Origin: Bacillota bacterium
GTDB taxonomy: Bacteria; Bacillota; JAAYKD01
Assembly: GCA_963666425.2 (NCBI GenBank)
Contig: OY762825.2
Location: 1,056,001 to 1,120,000, forward strand
Direction: 5' to 3'
DNA length: 64,000 nt
The translations under genes were made by a program, and so were the position numbers. Below, piece by piece: positions 26,485-63,933 of the stretch. Under the pieces are notes generated by a model. That model saw only the letters and a program-made list of their open reading frames with translations, had not been told where the DNA came from and did no database searches. Each line of letters begins with the position of its first letter. Positions within the stretch are counted from its first letter, which is position 1.

Positions 26485-26640
26485 TCCACCGCCGACCTTG
26501 ACCCTGCCAGTTTCTCTAAAAGGTCAGCCCTGTTTTCCATGGTTACATAACCTCCAGTTATTGATCAAGTAAAATTTAAAAATTCAAGATCTCAATTTCA
26601 TTGGCGTGCGCTCAATCTTGATCTGTATAACTACGACAAG

Positions 26641-29993: not shown

Positions 29994-29996
29994 AAA

Positions 29997-30910: not shown

Positions 30911-31089
30911 GATTTAGTGCGAATGATTTGTTTCAGTTTTGAGGATATGAAGGTTTGGTGTGCAGCAATTTCGAGTTGGCAGGGTAGTGGTTTTGTATAT
31001 GTGAATTTGCTCTGGGTAAGTGGCATCTTTGCATCGTGATCAGCATCTTTGGTACAGCACTCGATGTTGATTTATATAAAAATGACAAA

Positions 31090-34000
31090 TCAATTGTTAA
31101 TCTTAAACTGAAAACCTTTTTCTCTGAATAATGCAACGCAAGCATCTACGACTTCGCGGTCGTATTTTTTCCCTCTGTGCAAAGAAATTTCTTCTAGTGC
31201 AGCATCAATACCCAAAGCCATTCTATAGGGACGATGCGATGTCATAGCCTCAACGACATCTGCTACAGCCAATATTCTGCTCTCGAGGATAATTTGATCC
31301 CCCGCAAGCTTTTGCGGATAACCGGAACCATCCAGACGTTCATGATGCTGATGAATCATCTCGAGTACCTGTGGCGGGAAATCAATTTCCTTGACGATTT
31401 CATAGCCGGATTCAGCGTGGGTCTGTAGGATTTGATACTCAAGATTGGATATTTTGCCAGGTTTGTTGAGAATATCGGAAGCGATATTGATTTTGCCGAT
31501 ATCATGGATCAAGGCTCCGCTTGCGATATTGCTGACCCTCTCATCTGAAAGTCCCAACTCTTTGGCGATTGCGCAGGATAGTTCTGCCACTTTTCTTTGA
31601 TGTCCTGCTGTGTAAACATCCCTCAATTCACCAATCTTTGAAATAGCTTTGATTGTCTTGTCAAGCCTGTGAGCCAATGATTCGTTCATTACTCTGAGTA
31701 TATCCTCGGATTTCTTTTGCGCTGTAATATCTTGCACGACTCCTAATATCCCAACAACATCACCGTCTCGGTTATATAGTGGCGCACTCTGATCTCGTGC
31801 CCATCCGGATTTCTCGGTTTCTGAGACACTAAAGTAAAAATCGCACTCATCAAGTTTATGACCATTTAATGCCATTTCTAAATTGTTAATGAGCCCAGTT
31901 CCATCAAGCCAATTGAAAACCTCTCCCGCGTTGCGTCCAATCACCTCTTTCGCTAAGACTCCAGATAACTTCTCCATGAACGGATTCCATATTTTATAAC
32001 GCAACTCAGTATCGTATACAATAATCCCATTACTCACAGAATTGATAATATCTTGATTGAACTTCAGTGATTCTTCAAGATTTTCATGAGCTTTTGTTCG
32101 TTCCGTGATATCTGAAAAAGTTACAAGACTAGCCCATGTTTCCCCTTTCTCGTTGGTTATTGGTGTACCGAAGATCTCAAACAAGACTTCTGTACCATCG
32201 GGGCGTTCAACCACTATATCGTCAATATATGACTTCTTACCTTCCATCCCTTTGATGATGGGCCTCTCTTCAGTCGGATATGAGTCAGCGGAGCCTTTCT
32301 TATGCGCCTTCATGACTTCAGCGAAATTCTCTTTGTTGATATCGGGGAATATTCCTCTGCCTAGCAATTTTTTTGCCATTTCGTTTGTTAAAAGTGGCTT
32401 GCCATCAATAGCATCCACCATGAAAACGCCAACGGGGAGAACATTTAATAGCGAGGACATAATCTCATTTTGCCTTTTAACATCTTCTTCGTATTGTTTT
32501 CGCTCGCTAATATCCTGGGTTGCTCCCCAGAGAGCAGTAATGTTGCCGAACGTATCTTTTATAGCCTCGCCCCGCACCCACATCCAGCCATTCGATTCGT
32601 CTGCTTTTATTGTCTTGAGTTCCAGTTCGTATGGGATTCCTAAGGTTCTTGTTTTCTCAAGTGATGACGATAGTATATCCCAACTTTCCGGCGTAAATAA
32701 CTTCATATGCTCTGTGTAAGGAGGTGGTGGATTTGTTGGATCAAATCCATACATTTTGTAAAGTTCTTTCGACCATACAACTTGATTTGTCTCTAAATTT
32801 AACCTCCATGTTCCAATGTGAGCAATGCGCTGCGACTCAATTAGTTCTTCATTTTGCTGATTTAATCGTTCTTCAGTCAGCTTCCTCTTGGTAATATCCG
32901 TAAAAACGGTTGCAAATTGTTTAGGTTTCGGAGAATATGCAATTACCTCGTAATATTTATCCAGCTCACTAGAGTAATTTTCAAAATTTAATGATTCACC
33001 TGTCATGGCAACTTTACCATACTTTTCTATCCAGGATTGCTCTGTTCCCGGTAGAACTTCCAGTACGGTTTTTCCGATAATATTCTCGCGTTTGAGTCCA
33101 GTCAGTTCTTCGAACCCATGGTTCACATCCATGAATCGGTAGTCAATCACCTTTTCATCTTCATCCAAGATAACCTCATGCACTGCAAGCCCCTGTGTCA
33201 TCTGAGTGATGAGCAGCCTGTAATTCTCTTCGCTCTGCTGCAATGATTTTTGTGTAATCATTCTATCTGTGATATCAATAATAGAGGTCATATAATATAA
33301 AGGTCTTCCATCCGTATCCCTTCGTATTGATGTTTGCAAATCAGCCCACAAAATAGAGCCATCCTTTTTAATATACCTTTTGGTTATATGCATTGAATCT
33401 ATCTTGCCGGAAATAATTTCAGACGTTTTCTTCTCAATAAATTCAACATCGTCAGGATGCGTTATTTCCTGCCATTTTTTACTTTTAAGTTCATTTTCGC
33501 TATAACCAAGCATTGCACACATCGACTTGTTTACTTGTAACTCTCCCGAAGGCAGCGTAAGTGAGTTTCCTATTAGCGAATTGTCAAAAATGTATTTAAA
33601 TTTTCCCTCGCTTTCTTGCCTGGCTTTGTTTTCTATAGTCAGCTCTTGTGTTTTCTTTAAATCCAATTCGGCAAGCCGTTTATTTTCGTCCCGTCTGTAT
33701 ATACTCGCATTTCTAATTTTGACCATCGCCTGTATCTGCGCAGTCAGATCATAAATATCAATTGGTTTTGCAATAAAAGCCTCTGCACCACATTTTAGCG
33801 CGCGGATTCGATTTTCTTTATCCCCTTTTAAAGCGGTTATAAAAACTATGGGGATTTCTTTTAATTCTTCGTCTTCTTTTAGTTTGCAGCACACCTCAAA
33901 ACCGTCCATTTTAGGCATTACAATATCTAGAAGGATGACATCGGGATTTTCTTTTTTTGCCATCTCGATCCCTTGTATACCGCTAAGTGCCTGGAAAACT

Positions 34001-34230: not shown

Positions 34231-34631
34231 TGATGAAGCCAAAGAAAAGAAGGCAGAACGAAGAGAAGAATAGGCAGCGCCATGTGTTTACAGAGGTCAT
34301 TCCGGATGCATGTTCCATTGTGGCAAAGCACCTATGTTGAGAGGGCACCTCACTTCCACAGCTTCATAACGTGAACGGTGAGCTGCTGCACACATGAATC
34401 CGCTATTCGTTTTCTGTGAGCTGTTTATTCCCTGTTCATTTTTGTGAAATGTTACTATATCACTCTAAAGTTCTCTCTTGGTAACTAAATACCTTTCATA
34501 ATGGTTTTTAATTATCGAATTGGTTCATTGGAAACAGTAAAAATCTATTCATTCCACACACTCAACGCGCGTGACCTGAGGGTAACCTATCAACGGTTCA
34601 CGTCTTTTAACGATTCCTCTAGGGGGTGTGC
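34231..34631. repeat. ~400-bp direct repeat, copy 2
   Basis: Aligns with 29594-29993. Confidence 0.92.
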
Positions 34632-34886: not shown

Positions 34887-34975
<89 letters not shown>

Positions 34976-40160: not shown

Positions 40161-40375
40161 AGGGGCTGTAGCAAAACAAAAAATCGCTACAGTTCCTTTT
40201 TGCTGCTCCAGTATCATTTTTCACAAACAAAAGCAAGCTAATACGAAAAATAGCAGATAAAAATAGAAAGGTCAGACAAAATATCACCCAACTACAGGAG
40301 ATATTCTGGTTTTTACTATGCTTAAGCCGTAATTTTTTGGATAATTGTCGGTGCGATTTTGTTGAATCTTGTTGC
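40161..40375 (-). mobile_element. IS1182-family 3'-end remnant (inverted copy of 41914-42133)
   Basis: About 215 bp, reverse complement of the right copy; terminus GGGGCTGTAGCAAAA; encodes NKIQQNRT. Confidence 0.75.
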
Positions 40376-41819: not shown

Positions 41820-42133
41820 CCACAACTTTCGTCAGTTCCTGCTCCGCAGCAATAAAAAGGTTTTGGCAGAGGCTCTTTTTAGTGGTAATGGGCTACCGCA
41901 TCAACAAATTGCACAACAAGATTCAACAAAATCGCACCGGCAGACAATTGTTTAAAAAACTTACGGCTTAACAATAGTAAAAATCAGAATATTTCCTGTT
42001 TTGGAGTGAGATTTTGTCTGACCTTTCTATTTTTGTCTGCTATTTTTCATATTAGCTTGTTTTTCGTTTGTGGAAAACGGGACTGTAGCAAAAAAAAGGG
42101 ACTGTAGCAATTTTTGTTTTGCTACAGTCCCTG
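41820..42133 (+). mobile_element. IS1182-family transposase C-terminal remnant and right end
   Basis: Translates to HNFRQFLLRSNKKVLAEALLVVMGYRINKLHNKIQQNRTGRQLFKKLTA*; ends TTTTGCTACAGTCCCT. Confidence 0.75.
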
Positions 42134-42245: not shown

Positions 42246-45080
<2,835 letters not shown>

Positions 45081-45091
<11 letters not shown>

Positions 45092-45851
45092 AGTTTTTCT
45101 CCGCTTTGGTGATAATGCTCAAGAATTCTTCAGCCATTAAACAGGCTCCACCCACCAAAGCCCCATCAATCTCCGGCTGCAGCATATACTCAAGAATATT
45201 ACCGGCTTTCACGCTGCCTCCATAGAGAATCCGAATTTCTGCAGCCCAGCGATTGCCAAATACGCTGGCACAAGCTTCGCGAATAGCCGCAATCATTGCA
45301 TTTGCCATGGAAGCGCTGCAATTCTTGCCGGTTCCAATCGCCCAAATTGGTTCGTAAGCGATAATTATCTGCTCCGGCTTCAATTCAGCTAAATCACCGA
45401 TGACGTGAACCACTTGGTTTATGACAAATTGCGTCGCTTTACCAGCCTCCCGAATCGCAAGGCTTTCACCTACACAGAGCACAGGTACCAGCTCGCTGGC
45501 TAACGCCGCCTTTACTTTCTCCTGCACAAAGTCATCCGTTTCTGCCAGGAGTGTTCGGCGCTCGCTATGCCCAACCAATACATATTGACAACCGGCTGCT
45601 TTCAGCATGGGGGCTGAAATTTCGCCTGTATAAGCACCCGAATCGACCGGATAAACATTTTGCGCTCCGATTGACCAGTTCGTCTTGGGCAGGATCAGCG
45701 CAGACTGTGGAATCATCAGGTAGGGAGGGCAAATCACCGCTTCTACTTGGCCGGACAATTCAGCCGCAGCCAAGGCTTGCAAAAGATCAAGCGCTGACGT
45801 TGCAGCAGGATTCATTTTCCAGTTTCCGATAATCAAAGGCTTTCTCATCAT
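45081..45851 (-). CDS. tpiA: Triosephosphate isomerase
   Basis: GNWKMN, GHSERR, AYEPIWAIGTG, YGGSV. Confidence 0.98.
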
Positions 45852-45857
45852 AACACC

Positions 45858-47039
45858 TTAACGATCCAGCAGACAGGCGACACCGGGCAGAATCTTACCT
45901 TCTAAAAATTCTAGAGAGGCTCCGCCACCGGTAGAAATATGCGTCATAGCGGCTGCAAAACCAGCTTTTTCGACGGCGGCAGCAGAATCGCCTCCACCAA
46001 TAATGGAAATAGCAGAGGATTCTGCAATTGCTTTCGCAACAGCAAAGGTGCCGGCAGAGAATTGATCAATTTCAAACACACCCATCGGTCCGTTCCAAAT
46101 CACCGTTCCGGCATGAGCTAAAACCTGAGCAAAGGAAGCTACTGTGAGTGGACCGATATCGAGTGCCATTTCATTGTCAGCGATCGCATTTGGCAAGACC
46201 ACTCTGGCTACAGCATCAGCCGATAGCGCGGTCGCCACGACCAAATCCTGCGGCAGCATTAACGCTACTTTTTTCTCCACTGCTTTGGCCATAATCTCCT
46301 GGGCTACTTCTACTTTGTCCGCTTCCACCAGAGAAGCCCCCATCCTGATTCCTTTGGCCAAGAGGAACGTATTCGCCATGCCGCCACCAATGATCAATCC
46401 ATCCACCTTATCAAGCAAGTTCATCAAGACAGCAATTTTATCTGATACTTTTGCTCCCCCAATCACTGCAATAAAAGGCCGCTTGGGCTGTTCCAGCGCC
46501 ATACCCAAATACTCCAGTTCCTTCTCCATTAAAAGCCCGGCACCGGCAGGCAGATACTTTGCTACCCCAACCGTAGTAGCATGAGCACGATGGGCAGCAC
46601 CAAAGGCATCATTGATAAAAAGATCAGCATAAGAAGCCAACTCTTGAGCCAAGGCGTCTTCATTCAGTTCCTCACCAGGATGAAAACGACTGTTCTCCAA
46701 TAAAAGCACTTCGCCGGATTTTAAGTCAGCTGTAGCTTGTTTTGCGATTGGACCCACAAATTCCCGACAATATTGCACCGGCAGTTTCAGCAGTTCTTCC
46801 AGTCGTTCAGCAATTTTATTTAGACGATATTTTTCATTGATTTTCCCCTTCGGACGTCCAAAATGGCTGGTAAGGATAACGGCAGCGTGATGCTCCAGTA
46901 AATACTGTATGGTAGGTAAAGCGCCACGGATTCTGGCATCATTGCTGATTTCACCCTGCTCATCGGTCGGAACATTAAAGTCCACTCTCACCAAAACCTT
47001 TTTTCCAGTTACATCAAAATCACGAACTGTTTTTTTCAA
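45858..47039 (-). CDS. pgk: Phosphoglycerate kinase
   Basis: RVDFNVP, GGAKVSDK, HISTGGGASLE. Confidence 0.98.
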   Translation of the reverse strand: MKKTVRDFDVTGKKVLVRVDFNVPTDEQGEISNDARIRGALPTIQYLLEHHAAVILTSHFGRPKGKINEKYRLNKIAERLEELLKLPVQYCREFVGPIAKQATADLKSGEVLLLENSRFHPGEELNEDALAQELASYADLFINDAFGAAHRAHATTVGVAKYLPAGAGLLMEKELEYLGMALEQPKRPFIAVIGGAKVSDKIAVLMNLLDKVDGLIIGGGMANTFLLAKGIRMGASLVEADKVEVAQEIMAKAVEKKVALMLPQDLVVATALSADAVARVVLPNAIADNEMALDIGPLTVASFAQVLAHAGTVIWNGPMGVFEIDQFSAGTFAVAKAIAESSAISIIGGGDSAAAVEKAGFAAAMTHISTGGGASLEFLEGKILPGVACLLDR

Positions 47040-47165
47040 AACGATTAATCCTCCTTACTGAAGTTTAAAAAACAAAGCGGCTCCTGCATAAGCCGCCTTG
47101 TCCTTATTTCTTACTGCTTCACCGCTAAAGTAAAATCCGCTCTCTCTGGCCGCGGTACGTCAATC

Positions 47166-48170
47166 TTATAAACCTTGGCGGGCAATAAAGGCAGCCATGT
47201 CGCATAAACGGCAGGTATAACCCCATTCATTATCATACCAAGCCAGCACTTTCACTTGATTGCTGCCCATAACCATCGTTAAAGGTGCATCGACAATCGC
47301 ACTGTAATTGGTACCTTTCAGATCGATGGAAACGATCGGATCGTGACTGACCGTCAAAATACCTTTCATCTCGCCCGCAGCAGCTTCTTCAAAAGCCGCA
47401 TTGACGGATTCTACGCTGACAGGTTTTAGGGTATCCACTACCAAATCGACAATAGAAACAGTAGGAGTGGGAACGCGCAAAGCTAAACCATCCATCTTTC
47501 CCTTTAACACAGGTAAGACGGAGGCCAGCGCTTTTGTAGCACCACTGGTCGTTGGAATGATGGATAGGGCTGCAGCACGGGCTCTTCTTAAATCCTTATG
47601 AGACTTATCCAAGATATTCTGATCATTGGTATAAGAGTGAATCGTAGTCATAAAACCTTTTTCAATTCCGAATTTATCCTGCAGCACTTTCGCTACCGGA
47701 GCTAAACAGTTGGTAGTGCAGGATGCATTGGAAATGAGATAATGATTTTTAGGATCATACATCTCTTCGTTGACTCCCATTACCAAAGTGACATCCTCAT
47801 GCTTGCCGGGTGCCGATAAAAGAACTTTCTTTACGCCAACTTGCTGATATAAAAGCGCCTTTTGCTTCTCCGTAAATTTACCGGTACAATCGATCACCAA
47901 TTCAACGCCTAAATCCGCCCAAGGTAAATTCTGAGGTTCTTTTTCTTGCGAATAACGGATTTCTTTATGATTGATGATCATCATGTTAGGTTTCGTTTCA
48001 ACTGTACCATTCCATGTACCATAGCTGGAATCATACTTAAATAAATAAGCTGAACTCTCAACCGGACCGTTGCTGTTGATGGCAACCAGTTGAATATCCG
48101 AACTGTCTACCAGCATGCGAGTTGCCAGACGTCCTATTCGTCCAAAACCGTTGATGGCGACTTTAACCAT
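47166..48170 (-). CDS. gap: Type I glyceraldehyde-3-phosphate dehydrogenase
   Basis: INGFGRIGR, SNASCTTNCLAP, WYDNEWGY. Confidence 0.98.
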   Translation of the reverse strand: MVKVAINGFGRIGRLATRMLVDSSDIQLVAINSNGPVESSAYLFKYDSSYGTWNGTVETKPNMMIINHKEIRYSQEKEPQNLPWADLGVELVIDCTGKFTEKQKALLYQQVGVKKVLLSAPGKHEDVTLVMGVNEEMYDPKNHYLISNASCTTNCLAPVAKVLQDKFGIEKGFMTTIHSYTNDQNILDKSHKDLRRARAAALSIIPTTSGATKALASVLPVLKGKMDGLALRVPTPTVSIVDLVVDTLKPVSVESVNAAFEEAAAGEMKGILTVSHDPIVSIDLKGTNYSAIVDAPLTMVMGSNQVKVLAWYDNEWGYTCRLCDMAAFIARQGL

Positions 48171-48382: not shown

Positions 48383-48423
48383 AAAAAACTGTCCTGCTTT
48401 TATAAAAAGCAGGACAGTTTTTT
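48383..48423 (-). terminator. Terminator of membrane operon copy 1
   Basis: AAAAACTGTCCTGCTTTT-ata-AAAAGCAGGACAGTTTTT directly after the stop codon. Confidence 0.85.
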
Positions 48424-48426
48424 GAA

Positions 48427-49074
48427 TTATACCTTTAGCAAATGGAGCCAATCACCAAACAGGAAGGTCAAACGACCGATCAACAGAGAAATACGAGCCA
48501 TAACGGTATTACCGAATGATGCGCCGAAGCCGATCATAATCGCGATACGGCCCCAATTGGCTGCATATTTGAAAACACCTTTGCGTTCGATCGTAAAGAA
48601 GAAGTAAATCAGAACGCCAAGAACAATCGTGACAAAGAGTATATTGTTGAAACTGTTCCAAATATCCAAACTGCCTTTGGTCATCACAACCAACGGTTTG
48701 ATGGACTGGGTCATCTGGGTGAAGAACGGGATAACCTGACGAGCGGATAACACCAAAGCGGCGTTATAACCAATCCAAAAGGCCATCGGGATACGAGCGA
48801 TCCAAGCATACGGACGATACATATTGAAGTAAATCAAAAGACCGATAACCATCGGGATAATTTCCCACCAAGTGCCGGCTGTCGGCATCGAGGTGATGGC
48901 AGGTTTTACGGTGTTGTTCCAGGTGGTAACAATACCATGTGCCGCAGAGGTACCAACATACAGATGCTCGGCAATACGATAAATCGGATTTTCTTTATAC
49001 AGTATCGAAAACAACATCAGGGTTACTAAGGCAGAAAGCCAATTTCCCAGTGTCGGAGTTAAAATAGCTTGCAT
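48427..49074 (-). CDS. Uncharacterised polytopic membrane protein (subunit D, copy 1)
   Basis: 215 aa from MQAIL after GGAGGTG; about 6 hydrophobic segments; paralog at 52497. Confidence 0.85.
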   Translation of the reverse strand: MQAILTPTLGNWLSALVTLMLFSILYKENPIYRIAEHLYVGTSAAHGIVTTWNNTVKPAITSMPTAGTWWEIIPMVIGLLIYFNMYRPYAWIARIPMAFWIGYNAALVLSARQVIPFFTQMTQSIKPLVVMTKGSLDIWNSFNNILFVTIVLGVLIYFFFTIERKGVFKYAANWGRIAIMIGFGASFGNTVMARISLLIGRLTFLFGDWLHLLKV

Positions 49075-49093: not shown

Positions 49094-49930
49094 TTATTTT
49101 ACTTCTCCTGCTTTTCTCGCTGCGAAGTAACCAATATTACCCAAAATCAAGAACAGAATGATAACAACATGTCCCATTGATTGAGAGTCCATACCGCCAG
49201 TAGCAGCACCCAATTTTCCGGCAATTTTCTCTAAATAGGCAGCACCGGAAAGTCCGGAGACATTACCTTTGAGTAAGCCGGCTTGATAGTAATTGGTCAT
49301 CGTCGGAGTATTGACAGCCACAGAGGAACTAACGATTGGAACACTCTCAGTGGAATTCCATTGTTGAATCCAGGCGGTCGGACCGGGATCGCCGGAATTG
49401 AAAGTAACAACACAGGTAAAGTCTTTTGCCTTGGTTACATTCTTCATCATTGGGATTGTAGTTAATTTAGCACCGTTGGCATCAACACCGCCATTGCAGG
49501 CGCCATATAAGTCAGTTCTGGACTGTTCCAAGAAAGACTGATAGCTTGGCTGATAACCAAGGTTGCAATAATCAACGCCATATTCGGCCTTGTATTCGGT
49601 AGTAATCGGATCTCCCCAGATCTTGGCAAAGCTATTTCCTTCAGCCCATAAAGCGATAAAATAAACTTTGTGGCCAAGTTCAAATGATTTTCTCACCAAA
49701 ACATCAAAAGCCGGTTTTAATTCGGTAATACCGGAAGCAGATGTGTCGAGAGAATACAATATCTTAGATCCTGCAGGCAAACTGGTTATGTAGTCGTAGG
49801 CTGCTTGGGTTGGTTCATCGGAAGGAACCGGCAAACCCAAAGGATAAAACATGGGAATGGCAATTGCCAGAACCATGATGATATACAGAACACGACGGTC
49901 GATCCCCATTAATCTTTTATACCACGGCAT
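49094..49930 (-). CDS. Uncharacterised protein, TM-soluble domain-TM (subunit C, copy 1)
   Basis: 278 aa, AGGAGG RBS; paralog at 53164. Confidence 0.85.
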   Translation of the reverse strand: MPWYKRLMGIDRRVLYIIMVLAIAIPMFYPLGLPVPSDEPTQAAYDYITSLPAGSKILYSLDTSASGITELKPAFDVLVRKSFELGHKVYFIALWAEGNSFAKIWGDPITTEYKAEYGVDYCNLGYQPSYQSFLEQSRTDLYGACNGGVDANGAKLTTIPMMKNVTKAKDFTCVVTFNSGDPGPTAWIQQWNSTESVPIVSSSVAVNTPTMTNYYQAGLLKGNVSGLSGAAYLEKIAGKLGAATGGMDSQSMGHVVIILFLILGNIGYFAARKAGEVK

Positions 49931-49968
49931 ATTGATTGTGCCTCCTTTTTGTTATTACAGCGAGTCGA

Positions 49969-50592
49969 TTATTCTGCCATATAACCACGTTCGATACCGA
50001 ACAGGTTACGAGCACCTTGTGCGAATGCACCAAGAGCTACACCAAGAGAAACGGCACGAATTACCGGTGTGTTGAAGTAGTTCATGATCCAAACTTTCGC
50101 CTGCGGTAAAACAGGTGAAATCGCAGAACCAATGGATGTGCCGCCCAACATTACGATGCAGGCAGATAAGAGAAGCGCTGTCGCTTCCAAACTGCGAGCG
50201 CGGAATGCACGGTAGGCTGCTGAGCCAATATAGAAGCACAGCAATGCAAAAACGGTGGAACCGCCGGTTACAGCAGTGTTCTGGTAGAACCAGTTATAAG
50301 TAACACTGTTATGGCCGCCCGGTAAAGTAACGCCCAAAACCATCAACAAGACAAAACCAAAGATCAGAATCAGACTGTTAATCCAGCCGTCGCGTCTACG
50401 GGCAACTCTGTGCCAATGCACACGCATCAAGGAAATACCACCCAAAGCAATGGCCGTTGCGACGGACAAAGTCTGGCTGCGAACCAAATAGTTCTGAACT
50501 AATGTGTTGAAAGCCGGTGAAATGAAGATATCTTTTAGTATAACGATCAAACCAGTCACCAATGTGATTACCATCGGCAATGTTCTACGCAT
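49969..50592 (-). CDS. Uncharacterised polytopic membrane protein (subunit B, copy 1)
   Basis: 207 aa, about 6 hydrophobic segments, SAAYRAFRARS motif. Confidence 0.85.
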   Translation of the reverse strand: MRRTLPMVITLVTGLIVILKDIFISPAFNTLVQNYLVRSQTLSVATAIALGGISLMRVHWHRVARRRDGWINSLILIFGFVLLMVLGVTLPGGHNSVTYNWFYQNTAVTGGSTVFALLCFYIGSAAYRAFRARSLEATALLLSACIVMLGGTSIGSAISPVLPQAKVWIMNYFNTPVIRAVSLGVALGAFAQGARNLFGIERGYMAE

Positions 50593-50621
50593 AGATTACA
50601 CCTCCTGTTGTTAGTTTCTCT

Positions 50622-51476
50622 TTAATACAGTTTCAATAAATCCATGATCACATTCGTTTTCACGCCTGTGAAGGAACCAATCGTTGCCGCGATAACGCCG
50701 AGAACGATGATGATCAAGGTGAATTGTTTTCCCCAGTCCTGAACGACAATAGTTGCCAAGCGGACTCTGTCCTGACCTAAGTAAGCACCGGCAACGTAGA
50801 TTTCTTCACCAATCAAGCAATAGTCGCAAGCAACGATGAAGAAAGGAGTCTGGCTGGTAGAACTGGTAGCTGCGACCTGAATCGCGCCTGCCTGGTTGCC
50901 GGCTTCGGCGAATACCAAAGATTCAGCATAGAACAGACCGAACATAACCAGAGCAGCAACGCCTTCACGGTTCATGATACCGACTACGCCGGCGGCATAA
51001 CCGAATTGGTCATTGGTTAAGAAACGAACATCATCTTCACGATACGCATCCGGTTTGCCCACTTCAAAATAAGCGGCGCGAACAACGGATTCGGTAATCG
51101 GCTGGACAGACGGTGTACGGTTGCAGACGATCATACGAGCGTCGTATTTCGCAATCAATTTGGCGACATGGCCCAATACGTTGAAAGAGGCTAAGGTATC
51201 AGCAGAGGTTAAGTCACCAATACCAGGGCTATACAGAACGGGACGGCCCATTTCTGTTGCACGGCCAACTACTTCGTCAACGGCATCCAAACCGGCAATC
51301 CGGCGAACCTTCGGAATCGCACCTCCGGTGCGGGCTTTCTTTACCATGAGCAGCAGTGCCGCAACATAAATGATCAAGAAAAGTGTAGATGACAAACCGA
51401 GATTTCCATTGCTGTACAGCCATTTGGAAAAGAACGGTTTGATTGAAGTTGCAATATTTTGCATAAACGGTGTCAT
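50622..51476 (-). CDS. DUF6754-like protein (subunit A, copy 1)
   Basis: 284 aa from MTPFM after AGGAGGTG; RRIAGLDAVDEVVGRATEMGRP and PFF..ACDY.LIGEEIY.AGAYL motifs as I recall them for DUF6754. Confidence 0.8.
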   Translation of the reverse strand: MTPFMQNIATSIKPFFSKWLYSNGNLGLSSTLFLIIYVAALLLMVKKARTGGAIPKVRRIAGLDAVDEVVGRATEMGRPVLYSPGIGDLTSADTLASFNVLGHVAKLIAKYDARMIVCNRTPSVQPITESVVRAAYFEVGKPDAYREDDVRFLTNDQFGYAAGVVGIMNREGVAALVMFGLFYAESLVFAEAGNQAGAIQVAATSSTSQTPFFIVACDYCLIGEEIYVAGAYLGQDRVRLATIVVQDWGKQFTLIIIVLGVIAATIGSFTGVKTNVIMDLLKLY

Positions 51477-51758
51477 AAGTTTGCACCTCCTGTAAGATTT
51501 TACAATGTATTGAATAAAATAAACAGATGATAACATGATATACTGGAAAGTTTGAAAGAGAATTTTTGTTTGATCAATGCCGCCTTTACTTTCACCTCCC
51601 TGACAACACGTCTGTATGCGATTTTCAAAAACAATAATAAGATCGGCAATTTAGAAAATATCTACCAATTTTATGAATTGTTTTTGATACTTAGATAAAT
51701 ATGACGCAACCATGAATTTTCTACAATGATTTACGCAGCAATATCTAAGAACGCGCTT

Positions 51759-51787
51759 ATAATAAGCCATAAATCAAAATCTGTCAA
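51759..51787 (-). promoter_or_regulatory. Sigma-A promoter of operon copy 1
   Basis: TTGACA-17 nt-TATTAT. Confidence 0.65.
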
Positions 51788-52421
51788 ACTATTTTTTTCA
51801 AATTTTCTGCCATCTTTTATTTAATCTTTGTGAAACGCCTAAAACCTTCATATTCATTCAATATATTTGATTTATGAGAATTATTGCTCTTTTACATAAA
51901 ATATTCATAATATTTTAGCTATTTTATTCACATTAAGCGGTTACTGTTTTCGAATTTTTCGATATACTTCATTTCATTTTAAAAGATTTATATTCGTTTC
52001 ATGTCACCATATGATCCGAAAAAATGTTTATTATCAATATTTTGTAATAACTATGATATTTACGCGTGAATATATGCTTTAAATTGATAGTAGCATCAAA
52101 TTGATAGAATTTGATTATTTACCTCTAGATGGCAAATTCTCAATAATATATTAAGACAACAGCTACAAAGTAAAAACATGTTGCTGTTGTTCGCTTTTTC
52201 TGCTTTAACAGACTCATTCGTTGAGCAAACCGATGATATCTACAATAAATTAATAGCAAAATCACTATTCGCATTGGATAAATCGTATTTGTCCACTAAA
52301 AAACCAGATTAAGACCCGAACTGGTTTTTTCATAAGCCAATCAGACAAGTAAAACGATATTTGCTTTATCCTTCAGACTTTTTCAATCGTTTCTCCTGTC
52401 TGGTGAGTAACAGTACAACAT

Positions 52422-52469
52422 AAAAAAGCCCCTTAATCAAAAGATTGCTCTTTTAACTAAGGGGTTTTT
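52422..52469 (-). terminator. Terminator of membrane operon copy 2
   Basis: AAAAAAGCCCCTTA..AAAAGA..TCTTTT..TAAGGGGTTTTT. Confidence 0.75.
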
Positions 52470-52496
52470 GATCATTTAATGCTGCAATTTACTCGA

Positions 52497-53144
52497 TTAT
52501 ACTTTCAGTAAATGGAGCCAGTCGCCAAACAGGAACGTCAAACGACCGATTAATAAGGAAATACGAGCCATAACGGTATTACCGAATGATGCGCCAAAAC
52601 CGATCATGATAGCGATACGGCCCCAGTTGGCTGCATATTTGAAAACACCTTTGCGCTCGATGGTAAAGAAGAAGTAAATCAAAACACCCAAGACAATGGT
52701 GACAAAGAGGATATTGTTGAAGCTCAACCACCAGTCAAAATTACCCTTTGTCATTACAACCAATGGTTTGATGGACTGGGTCATCTGGGTGAAGAACGGA
52801 ATAACCTGACGGGCGGATAACACCAAAGCGGCGTTATAACCAATCCAGAAGGCCATCGGAATACGGGCAATCCAGGCATACGGACGATACATGTTGAAGT
52901 AAATCAAAAGTCCGATTACCATCGGGATAATTTCCCACCAGGTGCCGGCTGTCGGCATCGAGGTAATGGCAGGCTTTACGGTGTTGTTCCAAGTAGTGAC
53001 AATACCATGAGCCGCTGAGGTGCCAACATATAGATGCTCTGCAATACGGTAAATCGGATTTTCTTTATACAGTATGGAAAACAACATCAGGGTTATTAAG
53101 GCCGAGAGCCAATTTCCCAGTGTTGGAGTAAGGATAGCTGCCAT
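52497..53144 (-). CDS. Uncharacterised polytopic membrane protein (subunit D, copy 2)
   Basis: 215 aa; 6 substitutions versus copy 1. Confidence 0.85.
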   Translation of the reverse strand: MAAILTPTLGNWLSALITLMLFSILYKENPIYRIAEHLYVGTSAAHGIVTTWNNTVKPAITSMPTAGTWWEIIPMVIGLLIYFNMYRPYAWIARIPMAFWIGYNAALVLSARQVIPFFTQMTQSIKPLVVMTKGNFDWWLSFNNILFVTIVLGVLIYFFFTIERKGVFKYAANWGRIAIMIGFGASFGNTVMARISLLIGRLTFLFGDWLHLLKV

Positions 53145-53163
53145 TTTTCAAGTCACCTCCTGT

Positions 53164-54000
53164 TTATTTAACCGCGCCTGCTTTTCTGGCTGCGAAGTAA
53201 CCAATGTTACCCAAGACTAAGAACAGAATAATAATGACATGGCCCATCGATTGTGAGTCCATACCACCGGTAGCGGATCCTAATTTGCCGGATAATTTCT
53301 CAATATAAGCAGCGCCGGCTAAACCGCCGACATTACCTTTCAGTAAACCGGCTTGGAAATAATTCTCCATGGTCGGTGTGGATACTGAGGTGCAGGCTGA
53401 AAGGATCGGAACACTTTCGGTTGCATTCCACTGTTGAATCCAAGCGGTCGGACCGGGATCACCGGTGTTGTAAGACATAACAGCGTCAAAATCTTTTGCT
53501 TTTGTTACGTTCTTCATCATCGGGAAGGTGCTCAGCTTGGCGCCGTTGGCATCAATGCCACCGTTGCAGGCAGTATACAAATCTGTTCTGGATTGCTCCA
53601 ACCAAGATTGATAACTGACCATGTAACCTAATTTAATATAGTTCACACCGTAAACAGCCTTATATTCCTCGGCAATTGGGTCCATCCAGATAGAACCAAG
53701 GTTATTGCCCTCAGCCCATAAAGCCATAATAAATACATTATGACCTAATTCAAAAGACCTTCTGGCCAGAACATCTGCGGTCGGTTTTAATTCAGTTAAG
53801 CCGGATGCAGATAAGTCAAAGGAATACAGTACATTCGATCCTGCTGGCAGGTTGGAAATATAATCCCAAGTAGACTGAGTGGCAGCATCAGGCGGTACCG
53901 GCAAACCTATCGGGGAAAACATGGGAAAGGTAATCCCGACGGCTAAAATAATGTATAGAATACGACGGTCAATCCCCATTAATCTTTTATACCACGGCAT
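53164..54000 (-). CDS. Uncharacterised protein, TM-soluble domain-TM (subunit C, copy 2)
   Basis: 278 aa from MPWYK; about 72 substitutions versus copy 1. Confidence 0.85.
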   Translation of the reverse strand: MPWYKRLMGIDRRILYIILAVGITFPMFSPIGLPVPPDAATQSTWDYISNLPAGSNVLYSFDLSASGLTELKPTADVLARRSFELGHNVFIMALWAEGNNLGSIWMDPIAEEYKAVYGVNYIKLGYMVSYQSWLEQSRTDLYTACNGGIDANGAKLSTFPMMKNVTKAKDFDAVMSYNTGDPGPTAWIQQWNATESVPILSACTSVSTPTMENYFQAGLLKGNVGGLAGAAYIEKLSGKLGSATGGMDSQSMGHVIIILFLVLGNIGYFAARKAGAVK

Positions 54001-54035
54001 ATTGATTGTGCCTCCTTTCATTTGTAAACGAGCAC

Positions 54036-54659
54036 TTATTCTGCCATATAACCACGTTCGATACCGAACAGGTTACGAGCACCTTGTGCGAATGCACCAA
54101 GAGCTACACCAAGAGAAACGGCACGGATTACCGGTGTATTGAAGTAGTTCATGATCCATACTTTAATCTGCGGTAAAGCCGGAGAAATCGCAGAACCAAT
54201 GGATGTGCCGCCCAACATTACAAAACAGGCAGATAAGAGAAGCGCTGTCGCTTCCAAGCTGCGGGCGCGGAATGCACGGTAGGCTGCCGAACCAATGTAG
54301 AAGCACAATAAAGAGAAAACAGTGGAACCGCCCGACACGGCAGTATTCTGATAGAACCAGTTATAAGTAACACTGTTATGGCCGCCCGGTAAAGTAACGC
54401 CCAGAACCATCAACAAGACAAAACCAAAAATCAGAATAACGCTGTTGATCCAGCCGTCACGTCTGCGGGTAACTCTGTGCCAATGCACACGCATCAAGGA
54501 AATACCACCCAAAGCAATGGCCGTTGCGACGGACAAAGTCTGGCTGCGAACCAAATACTGCTGAACTAAAGTATTGAAGGTTGGGGAAATAAAGATATCC
54601 TTCAGTATAACGATGATACCAGTCACCAATGTGATTACCATCGGCAATGTTCTACGCAT
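54036..54659 (-). CDS. Uncharacterised polytopic membrane protein (subunit B, copy 2)
   Basis: 207 aa; 10 substitutions versus copy 1. Confidence 0.85.
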   Translation of the reverse strand: MRRTLPMVITLVTGIIVILKDIFISPTFNTLVQQYLVRSQTLSVATAIALGGISLMRVHWHRVTRRRDGWINSVILIFGFVLLMVLGVTLPGGHNSVTYNWFYQNTAVSGGSTVFSLLCFYIGSAAYRAFRARSLEATALLLSACFVMLGGTSIGSAISPALPQIKVWIMNYFNTPVIRAVSLGVALGAFAQGARNLFGIERGYMAE

Positions 54660-54688
54660 AGATTACACCTCCTGTTGTTAGTTTCTCT

Positions 54689-55543
54689 TTAATACAGTTT
54701 CAATAAATCCATGATCACATTCGTTTTCACGCCTGTGAAGGAACCAATCGTTGCCGCGATAACGCCAAGTACGATGATGATCAAGGTGAATTGTTTTCCC
54801 CAGTCCTGAACGACAATAGTTGCCAAGCGGACTCTGTCCTGACCTAAGTAAGCACCGGCAACGTAGATTTCTTCACCAATCAAGCAATAGTCGCAAGCAA
54901 CGATGAAGAAAGGAGTCTGGCTGGTGGAACTTGTAGCTGCGACCTGAATCGCGCCTGCCTGGTTGCCGGCTTCGGCGAATACCAAAGATTCAGCATAGAA
55001 CAGACCGAACATAACCAGAGCAGCAACGCCTTCACGGTTCATGATACCGACTACGCCGGCGGCATAACCGAATTGGTCATTGGTTAAGAAACGAACATCA
55101 TCTTCACGATACGCATCCGGTTTGCCCACTTCAAAATAAGCGGCGCGAACAACGGATTCGGTAATCGGCTGGACAGACGGTGTACGGTTGCAGACGATCA
55201 TACGAGCGTCGTATTTCGCAATCAATTTGGCGACATGGCCCAATACGTTGAAAGAGGCTAAGGTATCAGCAGAGGTTAAGTCGCCAATACCAGGGCTATA
55301 CAGAACGGGACGGCCCATTTCTGTTGCACGGCCAACTACTTCGTCAACGGCATCCAAACCGGCAATCCGGCGAACTTTCGGAATCGTGCCACCGGTCCGG
55401 GCTTGCTTTACCATGAGCAGCAGCGCCGCAACATAAACAATCAAAAAGAGTGTAGATGACAAACCGAGATTTCCATTGCTGTACAGCCATTTGGAAAAGA
55501 ACGGTTTGATTGAAGTTGCAATATTTTGCATAAACGGTGTCAT
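54689..55543 (-). CDS. DUF6754-like protein (subunit A, copy 2)
   Basis: 284 aa; 3 substitutions versus copy 1. Confidence 0.8.
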   Translation of the reverse strand: MTPFMQNIATSIKPFFSKWLYSNGNLGLSSTLFLIVYVAALLLMVKQARTGGTIPKVRRIAGLDAVDEVVGRATEMGRPVLYSPGIGDLTSADTLASFNVLGHVAKLIAKYDARMIVCNRTPSVQPITESVVRAAYFEVGKPDAYREDDVRFLTNDQFGYAAGVVGIMNREGVAALVMFGLFYAESLVFAEAGNQAGAIQVAATSSTSQTPFFIVACDYCLIGEEIYVAGAYLGQDRVRLATIVVQDWGKQFTLIIIVLGVIAATIGSFTGVKTNVIMDLLKLY

Positions 55544-55784
55544 AAGTTTGCACCTCCTGTATGTTTCAAATGATATGTTTTGAATCTGTTTGTTGTGTCT
55601 TTCCCGAACCATGAATAAAATAGAATGAATAAAGATTCCACTGTTGGTAAAAGCGCTTCCATTTCGTTATTTTGCTGCATACCCCCTTTTTTACCGCATC
55701 GCAATTTGTCTGATTTTACAATGCTATGCTACTTTTTGAGATTATTAGAGCAAACGGGAAAAAACTTATAACAAAACTAGCTTC

Positions 55785-55813
55785 ATTTTATACAAGTGCT
55801 CGATTTTTGTCAA
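55785..55813 (-). promoter_or_regulatory. Sigma-A promoter of operon copy 2
   Basis: TTGACA-17 nt-TAAAAT. Confidence 0.65.
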
Positions 55814-56507: not shown

Positions 56508-56783
56508 TTAATTTTTTAGAACTGACAGATCAGTTGGCAATTCAAGATAATATTCTGCTTGGTCACCATCATCGACAGCGATCATCGGAATTCCCACTCT
56601 GCCTGCGCCGCGTATTTCTGCATACAGTTTTAATGTATCTCGTAGTTTTAAAAATTCCTTCAACGGTTTCATACCGGAAGTGATATCAACATATTCGAAT
56701 TCAATCGCATTTTGGGAAAGAACCTCTTTCACCTTGGGGCAGCCGGGTCAGAAACTGCTGCCGAAGACTTTGATTTTTTTCAT
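56508..56783 (-). CDS. Glutaredoxin-like selenoprotein (UPGC motif, Sec12)
   Basis: ATG 56783 after an AAGGAGG RBS gives MKKIKVFGSSF-UGA-PGCPKVKEVLSQNAIEFEYVDIT..RVGIP; in-frame TGA at 56748-56750. Confidence 0.85.
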
Positions 56784-60767: not shown

Positions 60768-61022
60768 TCGTAGGAAAAATTCGAGAGAGACTGCAGCATC
60801 AGAAGGTTTCCGGTAAGGAAACCTTCAGCAGAGCCGAAGGGGAATTGCGAATAGCTCTCAGGCAAAAGAATCGAATTTGGACGATACTTCGGAAAGTCAT
60901 TGGGTTGACGCCGACGAAGCAATCAAACTCCGGATTAAAACTGCCTTAGGGTAACGTTTGGAGCAAGAGAATCTTTCAGGCAGAATTACGGAGGCATGCT
61001 ATTAGGCATGCCTCCGTTTTTT
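60768..61022 (+). promoter_or_regulatory. Tandem glycine riboswitch with terminator
   Basis: Aptamer 1 GAGAGAC..GCCGAAGGGG..CTCTCAGGC; aptamer 2 CGGAAAG..CGCCGACGAAGCAA..CTTTCAGGC; terminator ACGGAGGCATGC..GCATGCCTCCGTTTTTT; upstream of gcvT. Confidence 0.9.
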
Positions 61023-61056: not shown

Positions 61057-62175
61057 ATGGAAAAGAAAACACCTCTGTATGACTGCCATCTGGCAGCCGG
61101 CGGCAAACCTGTGCCTTTCGCCGGTTATTTACTGCCGATTCAGTATGCTACCGGCATTATTACGGAGCATATGGCGGTCCGCAAACAGGCGGGCTTATTC
61201 GACGTTTCCCATATGGGAGAAGTGATTTACAGCGGCAGGGATGCCGTAAAAAACCTGAATCATCTGCTGACCAATGATGTTGCGTTACTGCGCTATGGTG
61301 AAATCTGTTACAGCCCGATGTGCAATACAGAAGGCGGCTTTGTGGACGATCTGATCGCTTATAAACTGGACGATGAGAAATATATGCTGGTCGTCAATGC
61401 TTCCAATCGTGAAAAAGATGTTGCCTGGATGCAAGAACATCTTTTTGGCGACGTTCAATTCGAAGATATTTCCGACAGTATGGCGGAACTAGCACTGCAA
61501 GGTCCTAATTCCACCGCTATCTTAGCCAAACTGACAGATGCTGCTGCTCTGCTCGTCGGCAATTATACCTTCAAAGAAAACATCCTGCTCAACGGCATTT
61601 CCTGTCTCGTCTCTGTCACCGGCTATACCGGTGAGATGGGTTATGAAATTTATCTTGATAATGCAGATGCCGCCGAGGTTTGGAATTTGCTGCTGGCAGC
61701 CGGCAAAGAACTGGGTTTGATTCCCTGTGGCTTAGGCAGCCGTGATACGCTGCGTTTGGAAGCAGGCATGCCGCTATACGGCCATGAAATGGATGAGAGG
61801 ATCACTCCTTTGGAAATCGGCCTGAGCTATTTTGTCCACCTGGAAAAAGAGGGTGGTTTTCTGGGTAAAGAGGCCATGCTCGCCAAAAAGCCCTACGCAA
61901 ACAAGCGTGTTGGTCTCAAGGTAAACGGCCGCGGCATCGTCCGTGAACAGGAAAAGATTTTCATCGGTGATCAAGAGATCGGTATTACAACATCCGGAAC
62001 CTATTCTCCTTATTTCAGCTGCGGCCTCGCCATGGCTCGAATCAATAAAAAATACGGTAAAATCGGCACTCTGGTCGATGTTGAAGTACGCGGCAGACGC
62101 ATTGCCGCAGAAATTGTAGCGCTGCCTTTCTATAAGCGAAACCAGACAACAGCATCCGCTTCTCCCTTAAAATAA
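61057..62175 (+). CDS. gcvT: Glycine cleavage system aminomethyltransferase T
   Basis: KTPLY, LFDVSHMGE, TGYTGEMGYE, RDTLRLEAG. Confidence 0.97.
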   Translation: MEKKTPLYDCHLAAGGKPVPFAGYLLPIQYATGIITEHMAVRKQAGLFDVSHMGEVIYSGRDAVKNLNHLLTNDVALLRYGEICYSPMCNTEGGFVDDLIAYKLDDEKYMLVVNASNREKDVAWMQEHLFGDVQFEDISDSMAELALQGPNSTAILAKLTDAAALLVGNYTFKENILLNGISCLVSVTGYTGEMGYEIYLDNADAAEVWNLLLAAGKELGLIPCGLGSRDTLRLEAGMPLYGHEMDERITPLEIGLSYFVHLEKEGGFLGKEAMLAKKPYANKRVGLKVNGRGIVREQEKIFIGDQEIGITTSGTYSPYFSCGLAMARINKKYGKIGTLVDVEVRGRRIAAEIVALPFYKRNQTTASASPLK

Positions 62176-62223
62176 ACGCACATCTGGCGTTTATCAATAA
62201 AATTCAATAGGAGGTCAATCAAC

Positions 62224-62610
62224 ATGAACATTCCCCAAAATTTACTCTACAGCAAATCTCACGAGTGGGTCTTATTCTTGGATGAAACCACAGTGCGCAT
62301 CGGGATCACCAATACGGCGCAGCAATTACTTGGCGATTTGGTCTACATCAATCTGCCTGAAGTTGGCGACGCAGTTGTCAGCGGTGAAACCTTCGCCGAT
62401 GTGGAAAGCGTAAAAGCGGTTTCCGATATCTTCTCCCCTGTGACCGGTGAAGTCTCAGCTGTCAACGAAGAATTGAAGGATAACCCTCAATTCATGAACA
62501 GCGCTCCCTACGAATCCTGGTTGATTGAAGTCAAAAACCTCAGCGACCGGGAGGCATTGCTGAATGCGGAGCAATATGCTAAAATCTGTGCAGAGGAGGA
62601 GGGGCACTAA
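62224..62610 (+). CDS. gcvH: Glycine cleavage system H protein
   Basis: SHEWV, lipoyl site VESVKAVSD. Confidence 0.97.
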   Translation: MNIPQNLLYSKSHEWVLFLDETTVRIGITNTAQQLLGDLVYINLPEVGDAVVSGETFADVESVKAVSDIFSPVTGEVSAVNEELKDNPQFMNSAPYESWLIEVKNLSDREALLNAEQYAKICAEEEGH

Positions 62611-62613
62611 ACT

Positions 62614-63933
62614 ATGTCCTACATTCCTTCCAGCTTAAAGGAGCGTCAGGAAATGCTGCAGACGGTTGGAGTCCAGACAACCGATGATCTGTTTGCGGTT
62701 GTTCCCTCTGCTCTGAAAATCAAGCAATTGCAGCTTCCCGGTGGGAAAAGTGAATTGGAAGTCAGCCAAATCATGCGAGAGATGGCCGGCAAAAATCGAG
62801 TGTTTTCCGCTATTTTCCAAGGTGCCGGCGCTTACCATCATTATATTCCGGCAATCGTCAAAAGCATTACCGCCAAAGAAAGCTTTCTCACTGCTTATAC
62901 GCCCTATCAAGCCGAAATCAGCCAGGGCATTTTGCAGTCCATTTTTGAATATCAAACGATGATTTGTGAACTGACCGGCATGGATGTATCCAATGCTTCC
63001 ATTTATGATGGAGCTTCGGCAGCCGCCGAGGCCATGACGATGTGCCGCGAACGCAAACGCGAACGCGTTCTGCTTTCCGCATCAGTCCTGCCAATGGTTC
63101 TGCAAACCATACAAACCTACTGCAACGGCAATGGCATGACGGTAGAATTGATCCCAGAAAAAAATGGTGTCACCGATCTGGCGGCTCTGGAAGCACTGCT
63201 GAATGAGCAGACCGCTTGTGTTTACCTGCAGCAGCCCAATTACTTTGGCCTGCTGGAACCGGCCGAAGCGATTGCAGCAGCCACACATCAGGCCGGAGCC
63301 AAATTTGTGCTGAGTGTCAATCCCATTGCCGCAGCCATTTTAAAAACGCCGCGGGACTGCGGCGCTGATATCGCCGTTGGCGAAGGGCAGCCGCTGGGTC
63401 TGCCGTTGGCCTTTGGCGGTCCTTATTTGGGCTTCATGGCTACGACCAATGCTTTGATCCGCAGACTGCCTGGTCGCATCGTCGGAGAAACCGTTGATCT
63501 CGCGGGTAAACGCGCGTTTGTTTTGACCCTGCAAGCCAGAGAGCAGCATATTCGCCGTGAAAAAGCCTCCTCCAACGTCTGTTCCAATCAAGCTTTATGC
63601 GCCTTGACTGCAGCCGTCTACTGCTCTGCCATGGGACCAACCGGTCTGCAGGAAGCTGCCTCACAATGTCATGCCAAAGCGCATTATGCTGCCCGGCAAA
63701 TATCCGCCATCCCAGGCTTTGCGCTGCGCTATCAAGGGGAATTCTTTCATGAATTCCTCACAGAAACCCCATACTGCGCTGAAACGATTTTGGCAAAACT
63801 GGCTGAGAAAGATATCTTAGGCGGCTATCCCGTTTCCGGCGGCATGCTCTGGTGTGTCACCGAAATGAATTCTAAGGCTCAAATTGATGCCTTGACCGCT
63901 GTTTTAAAGGAGGTCAGTTCAACATGCAATTAA
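62614..63933 (+). CDS. gcvPA: Glycine dehydrogenase subunit 1
   Basis: TAYTPYQAEISQG, FGGPYLG, REQHIRREKASSNVC. Confidence 0.97.
   Translation: MSYIPSSLKERQEMLQTVGVQTTDDLFAVVPSALKIKQLQLPGGKSELEVSQIMREMAGKNRVFSAIFQGAGAYHHYIPAIVKSITAKESFLTAYTPYQAEISQGILQSIFEYQTMICELTGMDVSNASIYDGASAAAEAMTMCRERKRERVLLSASVLPMVLQTIQTYCNGNGMTVELIPEKNGVTDLAALEALLNEQTACVYLQQPNYFGLLEPAEAIAAATHQAGAKFVLSVNPIAAAILKTPRDCGADIAVGEGQPLGLPLAFGGPYLGFMATTNALIRRLPGRIVGETVDLAGKRAFVLTLQAREQHIRREKASSNVCSNQALCALTAAVYCSAMGPTGLQEAASQCHAKAHYAARQISAIPGFALRYQGEFFHEFLTETPYCAETILAKLAEKDILGGYPVSGGMLWCVTEMNSKAQIDALTAVLKEVSSTCN

Follow-up and report, generated by a model that had tools for sequence, protein, structure and literature searches.

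Two tandem copies of a four-gene operon, whose genes are here called A, B, C, and D, lie on the minus strand of a 64,000-nt stretch of DNA (the window) from a Bacillota bacterium (GTDB lineage JAAYKD01; assembly GCA_963666425.2, contig OY762825.2, positions 1,056,001-1,120,000 of the forward strand). They are direct repeats: an upstream copy at 55543-52497 and a downstream copy at 51476-48427. In a self-BLAST, 48426-51494 matches 52496-55561 along 3,069 bp (87.6% identity, 3 gaps). Both A proteins belong to DUF6754 (PF20539; 302 bits against a cut-off of 27, E 3e-90 to 4e-90); for B, C, and D, neither Pfam nor NCBIfam gave a family above cut-off. No literature on DUF6754/PF20539, or on such a system by description, was found in a search whose coverage ended short of subscription papers and supplements. 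At issue here is the markedly unequal divergence of the four genes, and what it may say about their function.

In the upstream copy, a candidate σ70-like promoter (55785-55813; TTGACA-17-TAAAAT) matches the consensus at 11 of 12 positions, joint best in the region. A_54k (54689-55543; 284 residues) is predicted from its Pfam match, its topology, and the model of the sister copy to consist of a transmembrane (TM) helix, a cytoplasmic α/β domain, and a second TM helix. B_54k (54036-54659; 207 residues), which has no Pfam match, has six predicted TM helices with the amino terminus inside. C_53k (53164-54000; 278 residues) has a predicted extracytoplasmic α/β domain between two TM helices, and is the type with relatives elsewhere at 87-93% identity. 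D_52k (52497-53144; 215 residues) is polytopic with the amino terminus outside (four TM helices by script, two judged by eye), and carries the 52k type of outer loop. An intrinsic terminator-like hairpin (52429-52464; a 16-pair stem and a T run) follows.

The downstream copy repeats this layout: a candidate promoter (51759-51787; TTGACA-17-TATTAT), A_50k (50622-51476), B_50k (49969-50592), C_49k (49094-49930), and D_48k (48427-49074). An inverted repeat 3′ of D_48k (48383-48423), found as an inverted self-BLAST match and not picked by the terminator scan, is a probable terminator. Both promoters were called by consensus match alone, in a scan that found 29 sites against 21.8 ± 4.9 in shuffled sequence. 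Upstream of A, the two copies share no related DNA, and their flanks are distinct. Upstream of the copies, Rfam models gave no match and short repeats were not convincing. Two motif patterns were uninformative: CodY-like boxes gave 5 matches against 7.2 expected by chance, and cre-like boxes gave 82 window matches at 2 mismatches (one at 55648-55661), too lax for use.

Unequal divergence and probable gene conversion

Codon by codon, the copies differ at 3 of 284 residues in A, 10 of 207 in B, 72 of 278 in C (74.1% identity), and 6 of 215 in D, with no indels. These are exactly the counts of a first-pass annotation, which concluded that only C had diversified; the four C motifs it quoted are likewise present. 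What it missed is that the silent sites follow the same pattern. By codon counting with bootstrap intervals, synonymous divergence (dS) is 0.063 (0.03-0.10) for A, 0.29 (0.20-0.40) for B, 0.52 (0.37-0.73) for D, and 1.39 (1.0-2.2) for C. The fraction of differing synonymous codons varies accordingly (A, 13/271; B, 32/186; D, 57/190; C, 91/193; χ2 123, p 1.6e-26), and is unequal among A, B, and D too (Fisher p 2e-5 and 1e-13; B versus D, 0.004).

The residue excess in C is therefore real, but it does not reflect faster protein evolution. Nonsynonymous divergence (dN) in C is 0.18, and the ratio dN/dS (ω) is 0.128 (confidence interval 0.075-0.186), compared with 0.075 for A, 0.10 for B, and 0.05 for D; C is under purifying selection. 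Relative to A, B, and D pooled, C exceeds 9.6-fold in dN and 5.8-fold in dS (1.39 versus 0.24), so that the dN excess is mostly a dS excess. The resulting ω ratio, 1.65 (confidence interval 0.83-3.1), is near the usual ratio of C distance to mean A, B, and D distance in the family, 1.45. It is more accurate to say that A, B, and D have been homogenised than that C has diversified.

The longest tracts identical in both copies measure 350, 155, 149, 113, 92, 90, and 87 bp, and none of 20,000 permutations gave so high a run statistic. The 350-bp tract (50866-51215) presumably marks recent gene conversion, and that of 149 bp (50551-50699) crosses a gene border, spanning the end of A, the spacer, and the start of B. 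A further 47-bp tract (49902-49948) covers the ribosome-binding site and first codons of C, and the divergence island begins directly after it: dN is 0 and dS 0.14 over C codons 1-13. C thus has homogenised flanks, long identical tracts and unequal dS around it, and the highest silent as well as replacement divergence, as expected of such an island.

Because dS differs among A, B, and D, a single duplication date cannot explain the pattern; repeated gene conversion can. Together with the tracts that cross borders, the matching silent and residue patterns strongly indicate a history of conversion between tandem paralogs, with C as an old or imported island, and recombination of this sort very probably accounts for the divergence pattern as a whole. 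The two operons would be tandem paralogs that still exchange DNA through conversion, which would have repeatedly reset A and a large part of B, as well as D, where the resetting is less recent. Starting near codon 14, the whole remainder of C would have long escaped conversion, or arrived by recombination from a distant relative.

An evolutionary pattern of this kind is already known. For adjacent duplicates, a review (PMC3924837) describes an interior divergence peak within a converted block as a signature of selection against conversion, shown for opsins. The window resembles the red and green opsins in that adjacent duplicates are homogenised apart from a single region with a peak of divergence at silent and replacement sites alike. 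Here, by contrast with the opsins, the island is a whole gene in a bacterial operon, and the functional difference between the copies is only putative. What is added is an instance in a large uncharacterised system.

It is highly improbable that the pattern is an assembly artefact, in which reads from two strains or collapsed repeats yielded chimeric copies. The 350-bp identical tract and the near-identical A genes are repeats of the sort that assemblers can mis-resolve, but differences occur throughout B, C, and D, each copy has flanks of its own, another cluster contains an identical C_49k, and A_54k occurs on 3 contigs. The first-pass annotation had also argued against an assembly duplication, and rightly: no relation is seen between the flanks, promoter-like and terminator-like sites accompany each copy separately, and another protein cluster, P0001, contains C_49k at 100% identity.

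The C island and the D loop

The two C proteins differ in the company they keep. C_53k has relatives at 93% (P0002), 87% (P0004), and 89% (P0005) identity, with its paralog C_49k only at 74%. C_49k has the identical cluster P0001, then nothing above 72% among 91 hits. The A paralogs, in comparison, are 98.9% alike, and among the listed relatives only P0093 (99.6% to A_50k) and their own identical records are closer.

Relative-rate counts of the two C proteins against 10 deep outgroups (P0018-P0027) are symmetric (for example, 19 versus 21 unique residues), indicating that C_49k did not accelerate; against P0002 the count is 65 versus 5. Identities and relative-rate counts in C therefore put orthologs closer than paralogs, but the approximately unbiased (AU) test under maximum likelihood leaves the paralog clade standing. 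A clade of C_49k with C_53k (p-AU 0.62, likelihood 3.5 higher) and a basal placement of C_49k (p-AU 0.52) both survive, so the protein tree alone cannot date the C split. C_49k may be an old duplicate or an imported allele. Among 15 between-locus pairs with C distances of 0.25-0.40, distances are 0.08-0.37 for A, 0.09-0.37 for B, and 0.18-0.41 for D; the window pair, at comparable C distance, has 0.012, 0.051, and 0.020, respectively.

A different history, implied by the first-pass annotation, would have a recent duplication and then rapid positive selection that acted on C and no other subunit. It could draw on the long branch of C_49k (0.22-0.34) and on the surviving paralog clade. Positive selection would not, however, lift dS in C about 20-fold over that in A (1.39 versus 0.063), and an ω of 0.13 and the symmetric rates against deep outgroups also speak against it; this history is scarcely credible.

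How unusual the window is can be judged from the family. A GTDB scan with an A alignment gave 618 confirmed matches, the best of which is 55% identical to A; all locus counts here rest on the best 79. These loci come from Bacillota, from one archaeon, and from many candidate phyla. In 71 of them all four genes are present in the order ABCD, the other 8 being cut by contig ends, and 13 of the 71 carry two or three deeply diverged copies. No relative of A was found on plasmids. The C family alone forms 2,462 clusters at 50% identity, and of the four subunits C is conserved least across the family (mean identity over 3,916 pairs: A, 52.5%; B, 40.1%; C, 35.7%; D, 40.4%). Even so, the ratio of C distance to mean A, B, and D distance is 1.45 (range 0.73-2.36) in 44 close between-locus pairs, compared with 10.4 in the window pair, which has the most extreme negative C residual of 3,910 operon pairs (z -6.2). 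By both measures the window pattern is exceptional.

Within C, the changes are not clustered along the chain, as the first-pass annotation had proposed: the densest 10-residue stretch holds 6 (permutation p=0.89). Adjacent changed pairs, of which there are 25, are in marginal excess (p=0.03), and changes are enriched in β-strands (17/34 versus 41/165, p=0.006). The first TM region differs at 8 of 19 residues. At sites invariant in 16 close relatives, C_49k has 16 changes of its own, among them L63T, C203S, T204V, S207N, and G225S, which lie at the ends of strands 1, 5, and 6 beside family-conserved motifs; these five are post hoc candidates and as a set are not significant.

In D, four of the six changes do fall in one loop (residues 135-140), as that annotation had stated, and the cluster is significant under uniform placement (p=0.0004) and also with weights for the variability of each site in 43 close relatives (p=0.0013-0.0036). 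The loop (116-141) is predicted to lie outside the membrane, on the same side as the C domain. Silent divergence has no clear peak there. Each loop type recurs elsewhere: P0213 (93% to D_48k) has L136, I138, and N140 as in D_48k, and P0257 (a fragment, 83-85%) has F136, W138, and L140 as in D_52k. At S14, A66, and F142 the two paralogs agree with each other, against P0213 and most of the 43 outgroups. With one sequence per loop type, such conflicting sites indicate probable recombination in D.

Must selection have maintained the C island? A neutral simulation of 900 runs, a toy with guessed parameters and no horizontal import, produced an island confined to one gene in 47 runs; it fell in the edge gene D in 41 of them, in A in 4, and in B and C in 1 each. 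(An earlier version with too little conversion gave none in 300 runs.) In such a model, drift alone is an unlikely source of an interior C island. Import could nevertheless produce one without selection.

The island could be neutral, either because a distant C allele was imported into one copy by a double crossover in the conserved flanks, or because C, in every case the fastest subunit, drifted past the similarity needed for recombination. It would then persist merely for being too different to convert, the copies doing the same job and differing mainly in regulation or dosage. Converted DNA on either side of an interior island is what import would naturally leave; C_49k lacks relatives of intermediate identity; ω and substitution type in C look ordinary; C is the least conserved subunit of its family; and the upstream regions of the two copies are unrelated. 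The conversion rate, moreover, depends on divergence, according to PMC3924837. Against this stand the single C-only island among the 47 in the toy model (itself lacking import), the recurrence of both D loop types in other lineages, and the position of T204V, S207N, and L63T at family-conserved motif positions, specific to C_49k among 17 close sequences. On balance a neutral island is rather unlikely.

Predicted architecture of a putative ABCD complex

The AlphaFold model of C (predicted local distance difference test, pLDDT, 95) contains a membrane helix, a six-stranded α/β domain, and a second membrane helix. That of A (pLDDT 85) has the same layout and the same order of helices and strands. 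No homology between A and C, or between B and D, was detected (profile comparison gave probabilities below 5%, not exceeding those of reversed controls).

Charge patterns across the family suggest how these proteins sit in the membrane. The lysine and arginine load near the membrane is 7.0 on the domain side of A and 3.6 at each short terminus of C; that the C domain lies outside is very likely, and the A domain is predicted to lie inside. The same patterns give B six helices that start inside, and have D start outside. The first-pass annotation had cast C as a putative ligand-binding subunit that the D loop may contact, and it is indeed C whose soluble domain is predicted to be outside, with the variable D loop on the same side.

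Natural variants agree with this sidedness. A is longer than 330 residues in 60 of 87 cases, mostly through an amino-terminal extension with a signal-peptide-like start (by eye), and 2 of 5 extensions tested have fn3 matches, 1 of them above cut-off. One B protein has a C-like domain (L025:1255-2598) and another has FG-GAP repeats (L075:10791-12569), both inserted in the same predicted outer loop. A natural C-D fusion (P0435) has one extra TM helix, exactly the number needed, and P0381 is a C protein with two tandem domains. The fusion and the fixed gene order suggest that ABCD form one membrane complex. A four-chain complex prediction with C as the partner scored 0.71, with 0.00 and 0.00 for partner-replaced controls, and gave no contacts; since an A-replaced control also scored 0.71, it counts neither for nor against binding.

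Fold searches return generic Rossmann-like structures: for C the best is 1kjn (Z 9.8, root-mean-square deviation 3.4, 139 aligned residues), and for A, 6zdz (Z 10.3, 2.9, and 136, respectively). Foldseek gave no match at E<=0.001, and sequence searches of the PDB with A, B, C, D, and two neighbouring proteins described below gave nothing significant (best E 0.047). In the ESM Atlas, C matched only clusters without a name, and B nothing usable.

The predicted exposure of the C domain raises the alternative that C varies under attack from outside, by a phage using it as a receptor or something similar, and not to handle a different solute. The C domain and the variable D loop are both predicted to be exposed, but the changes favour buried β-strands and are conservative, ω is 0.13, and there are no indels, all of which makes this very unlikely.

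Importers of the ABC, TRAP, and TTT types have a soluble binding protein outside, beside polytopic membrane subunits. ABCD likewise has a predicted outside soluble domain (two in tandem in P0381), polytopic subunits, and multiple paralogous operons. C appears to differ in being a single α/β domain anchored at both ends, six-stranded in the model, and not a two-lobed protein; its fold search does include binding proteins (Z 8.2 and 7.7), along with many other Rossmann-like matches. Searches of A, B, C, and D with hidden Markov models (HMMs) of ABC ATPase, BPD_transp_1, and Dct gave no match, for the first two at E up to 1, and neither ABC ATPase nor BPD_transp_1 is a constant neighbour in the 79 loci. 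For TRAP, TTT, and ECF systems, the membrane subunits have no Pfam or NCBIfam match and no PDB sequence relative, the fold searches having covered A and C.

RnfA/RnfE and NqrD/NqrE are inverted pairs of six-helix proteins. B and D, each of about 210 residues and opposite in predicted orientation, resemble them in this respect; they differ in having no HMM match, and no cysteine in invariant or near-invariant columns. Ktr/Trk channels combine an RCK domain with a KtrB-type pore; in the fold searches RCK domains appear at Z 7.5-9.6, level with unrelated Rossmann folds, and there is no TrkA or TrkH HMM match. In layout, ABCD resembles a binding-protein-assisted transporter; by sequence, membership of ABC, TRAP/TTT/ECF, and Rnf/Nqr fails.

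Possible function and neighbouring genes

Elsewhere in the family, ABCD is often accompanied by a GlmL-like protein (PF13941; 21 of 79 loci) and a barrel-sandwich-hybrid partner (19 loci); either is present in 23, both in 17. Among loci that extend over 19 kb, one or both are present in 17 of 34, across many phyla. (The 23 loci are L002, L003, L004, L005, L010, L018, and 17 others, with up to three pairs in L003.) The GlmL-like protein has about 600 residues and its partner 375-460, and two small genes are often beside them. GlmL and Or-4 (PF13941, TIGR01319) are accessory ATPases of B12 mutases. The protein that flanks ABCD is a relative, but is longer, scores far below the equivalog cut-offs (219-226 versus 475; 204-225 versus 600), and is paired with a barrel-sandwich-hybrid protein. 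The two proteins are possibly the soluble part of the ABCD system.

A domain scan of 120 selected neighbours and long subunit homologs found peptidases and amino-acid enzymes near ABCD: M20 in 6 loci, C26 and M55 in 3 each, and also S58, M14, M54, amidohydrolases, and asparaginases. Homologs of the window's glycine-cleavage P gene (named from sequence and riboswitch, not by HMM) are neighbours in 7 loci. (In the window, a tandem glycine riboswitch at 60772-60993 precedes gcvT/gcvH/gcvPA-like genes, named from sequence, at 61057-63933 on the plus strand; similar genes neighbour ABCD elsewhere.) The peptidases and amino-acid enzymes point to amino acids or small peptides as the substrate, a tentative assignment that is somewhat doubtful on neighbourhood evidence.

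The main rival to a transporter function is that ABCD is a transmembrane signal transducer or a membrane enzyme, with sensing or catalysis by C outside and a relay through A to the GlmL-like ATPase system inside. α/β domains of like topology are predicted on both membrane faces, RCK domains and nucleotide-binding enzymes are among the fold neighbours (Z 8-10), and many polar residues of A are invariant. On the other hand, two glycine-rich polytopic subunits account for about 12 of the 16 predicted helices; 13 of 71 loci have two or three deeply diverged copies, as transporter paralogs often do; and no kinase or regulator is a constant neighbour. Such a function is unlikely.

That ABCD is a transporter is an even call, and under the favoured mechanism its four proteins form a single complex in the membrane, which most likely imports a solute and belongs to a family not yet described. 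The membrane-tethered outside domain of C and the outer loop of D would meet the solute, B and D would form the membrane path, and the inside domain of A would couple to a nucleotide, or to the GlmL-like ATPase and its barrel-sandwich partner. The C island and the D loop would persist since conversion there would erase the difference in recognition between the two complexes. The role of C as the specificity subunit, which the first-pass annotation had proposed, is plausible at somewhat less than even chances, and the same holds for a difference in ligand or affinity between the copies, as predicted from their sequences. History and function taken together, this is the best explanation at hand, held with slightly less than even confidence.

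Several observations weigh against it. The purifying ω of C is one, and another is the lack of relatives of C_49k between 72% and 100% among its 91 hits, such as an old, widely kept paralog might have; the survival of both tree placements in the AU test also counts here. Variable residues, which the first-pass annotation suggested testing for clustering at a cleft, are not enriched at the predicted site, the carboxyl-terminal ends of the C strands (15/48 versus 43/151, p=0.72), and family conservation is no higher at those ends than at the amino-terminal ends (p=0.6, 217 sequences), so no cleft is demonstrated. Substitutions in C are milder than in 49 comparable pairs (22% versus 33 ± 4% with negative BLOSUM scores); mostly, then, the changes do not resemble a specificity switch. 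Nor is C a routinely swapped module family-wide: 19 other same-locus paralog pairs have no C excess (median ratio 1.37 versus 1.32), and subunit trees of 87 operons largely agree (29-32 of 32-38 strong splits in common). Neither B nor D matches a transporter family, the GlmL-like pair is absent from the 64-kb window, and neighbour enrichment was counted without a background control.

A bolder version of the importer reading makes ABCD the membrane part of an undescribed, widespread importer class with oppositely oriented halves (A and B in, C and D out), driven or modified by the GlmL-like ATPase and its barrel-sandwich partner. The near-identical core with two specificity heads, C and the D loop, kept by selection, would then be a natural swap experiment. 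Taken whole, this version is quite improbable.

Either way the operon pair is useful. Since the copies have nearly the same A, B, and D, the cause would lie in C and six D residues should they differ in uptake, binding, or growth, which makes the pair an unusually clean route to the ligand and to the function of the family. If instead the copies are equivalent, they warn that unequal subunit divergence can stem from conversion and not from functional change.

Other parts of the window hold several separate features. About 250 bp beyond D_48k lies a gap-pgk-tpi-gpmI-eno glycolytic cluster (named from sequence; 42246-48170, minus strand), which is not a recurrent neighbour in other loci. On the other side, a glutaredoxin-like open reading frame (56508-56783, minus strand; Pfam Glutaredoxin, E 2.6e-8) has an in-frame TGA at codon 12, in the UxxC position, and is a probable selenoprotein; a small hairpin 3′ of the TGA folds no better than shuffles (z 0.36).

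A second duplicated stretch (26608-27250 and 31057-31699; 643 bp, 86.6%) encodes the carboxyl-terminal domains of two signalling proteins, presumably HD-GYP-like. Between its two copies, the region 29594-30776 contains a group II intron domain match (30603-30776) and a reverse-transcriptase-like remnant reading frame (30080-30415), and shares a 406-bp repeat with 34231-34631, near a tRNA gene (34890-34975). Finally, an inverted repeat pair (40161-40374 and 41914-42132; 220 bp, 85%) flanks a gene that is presumably polysaccharide-deacetylase-like, and possibly marks a small mobile element.

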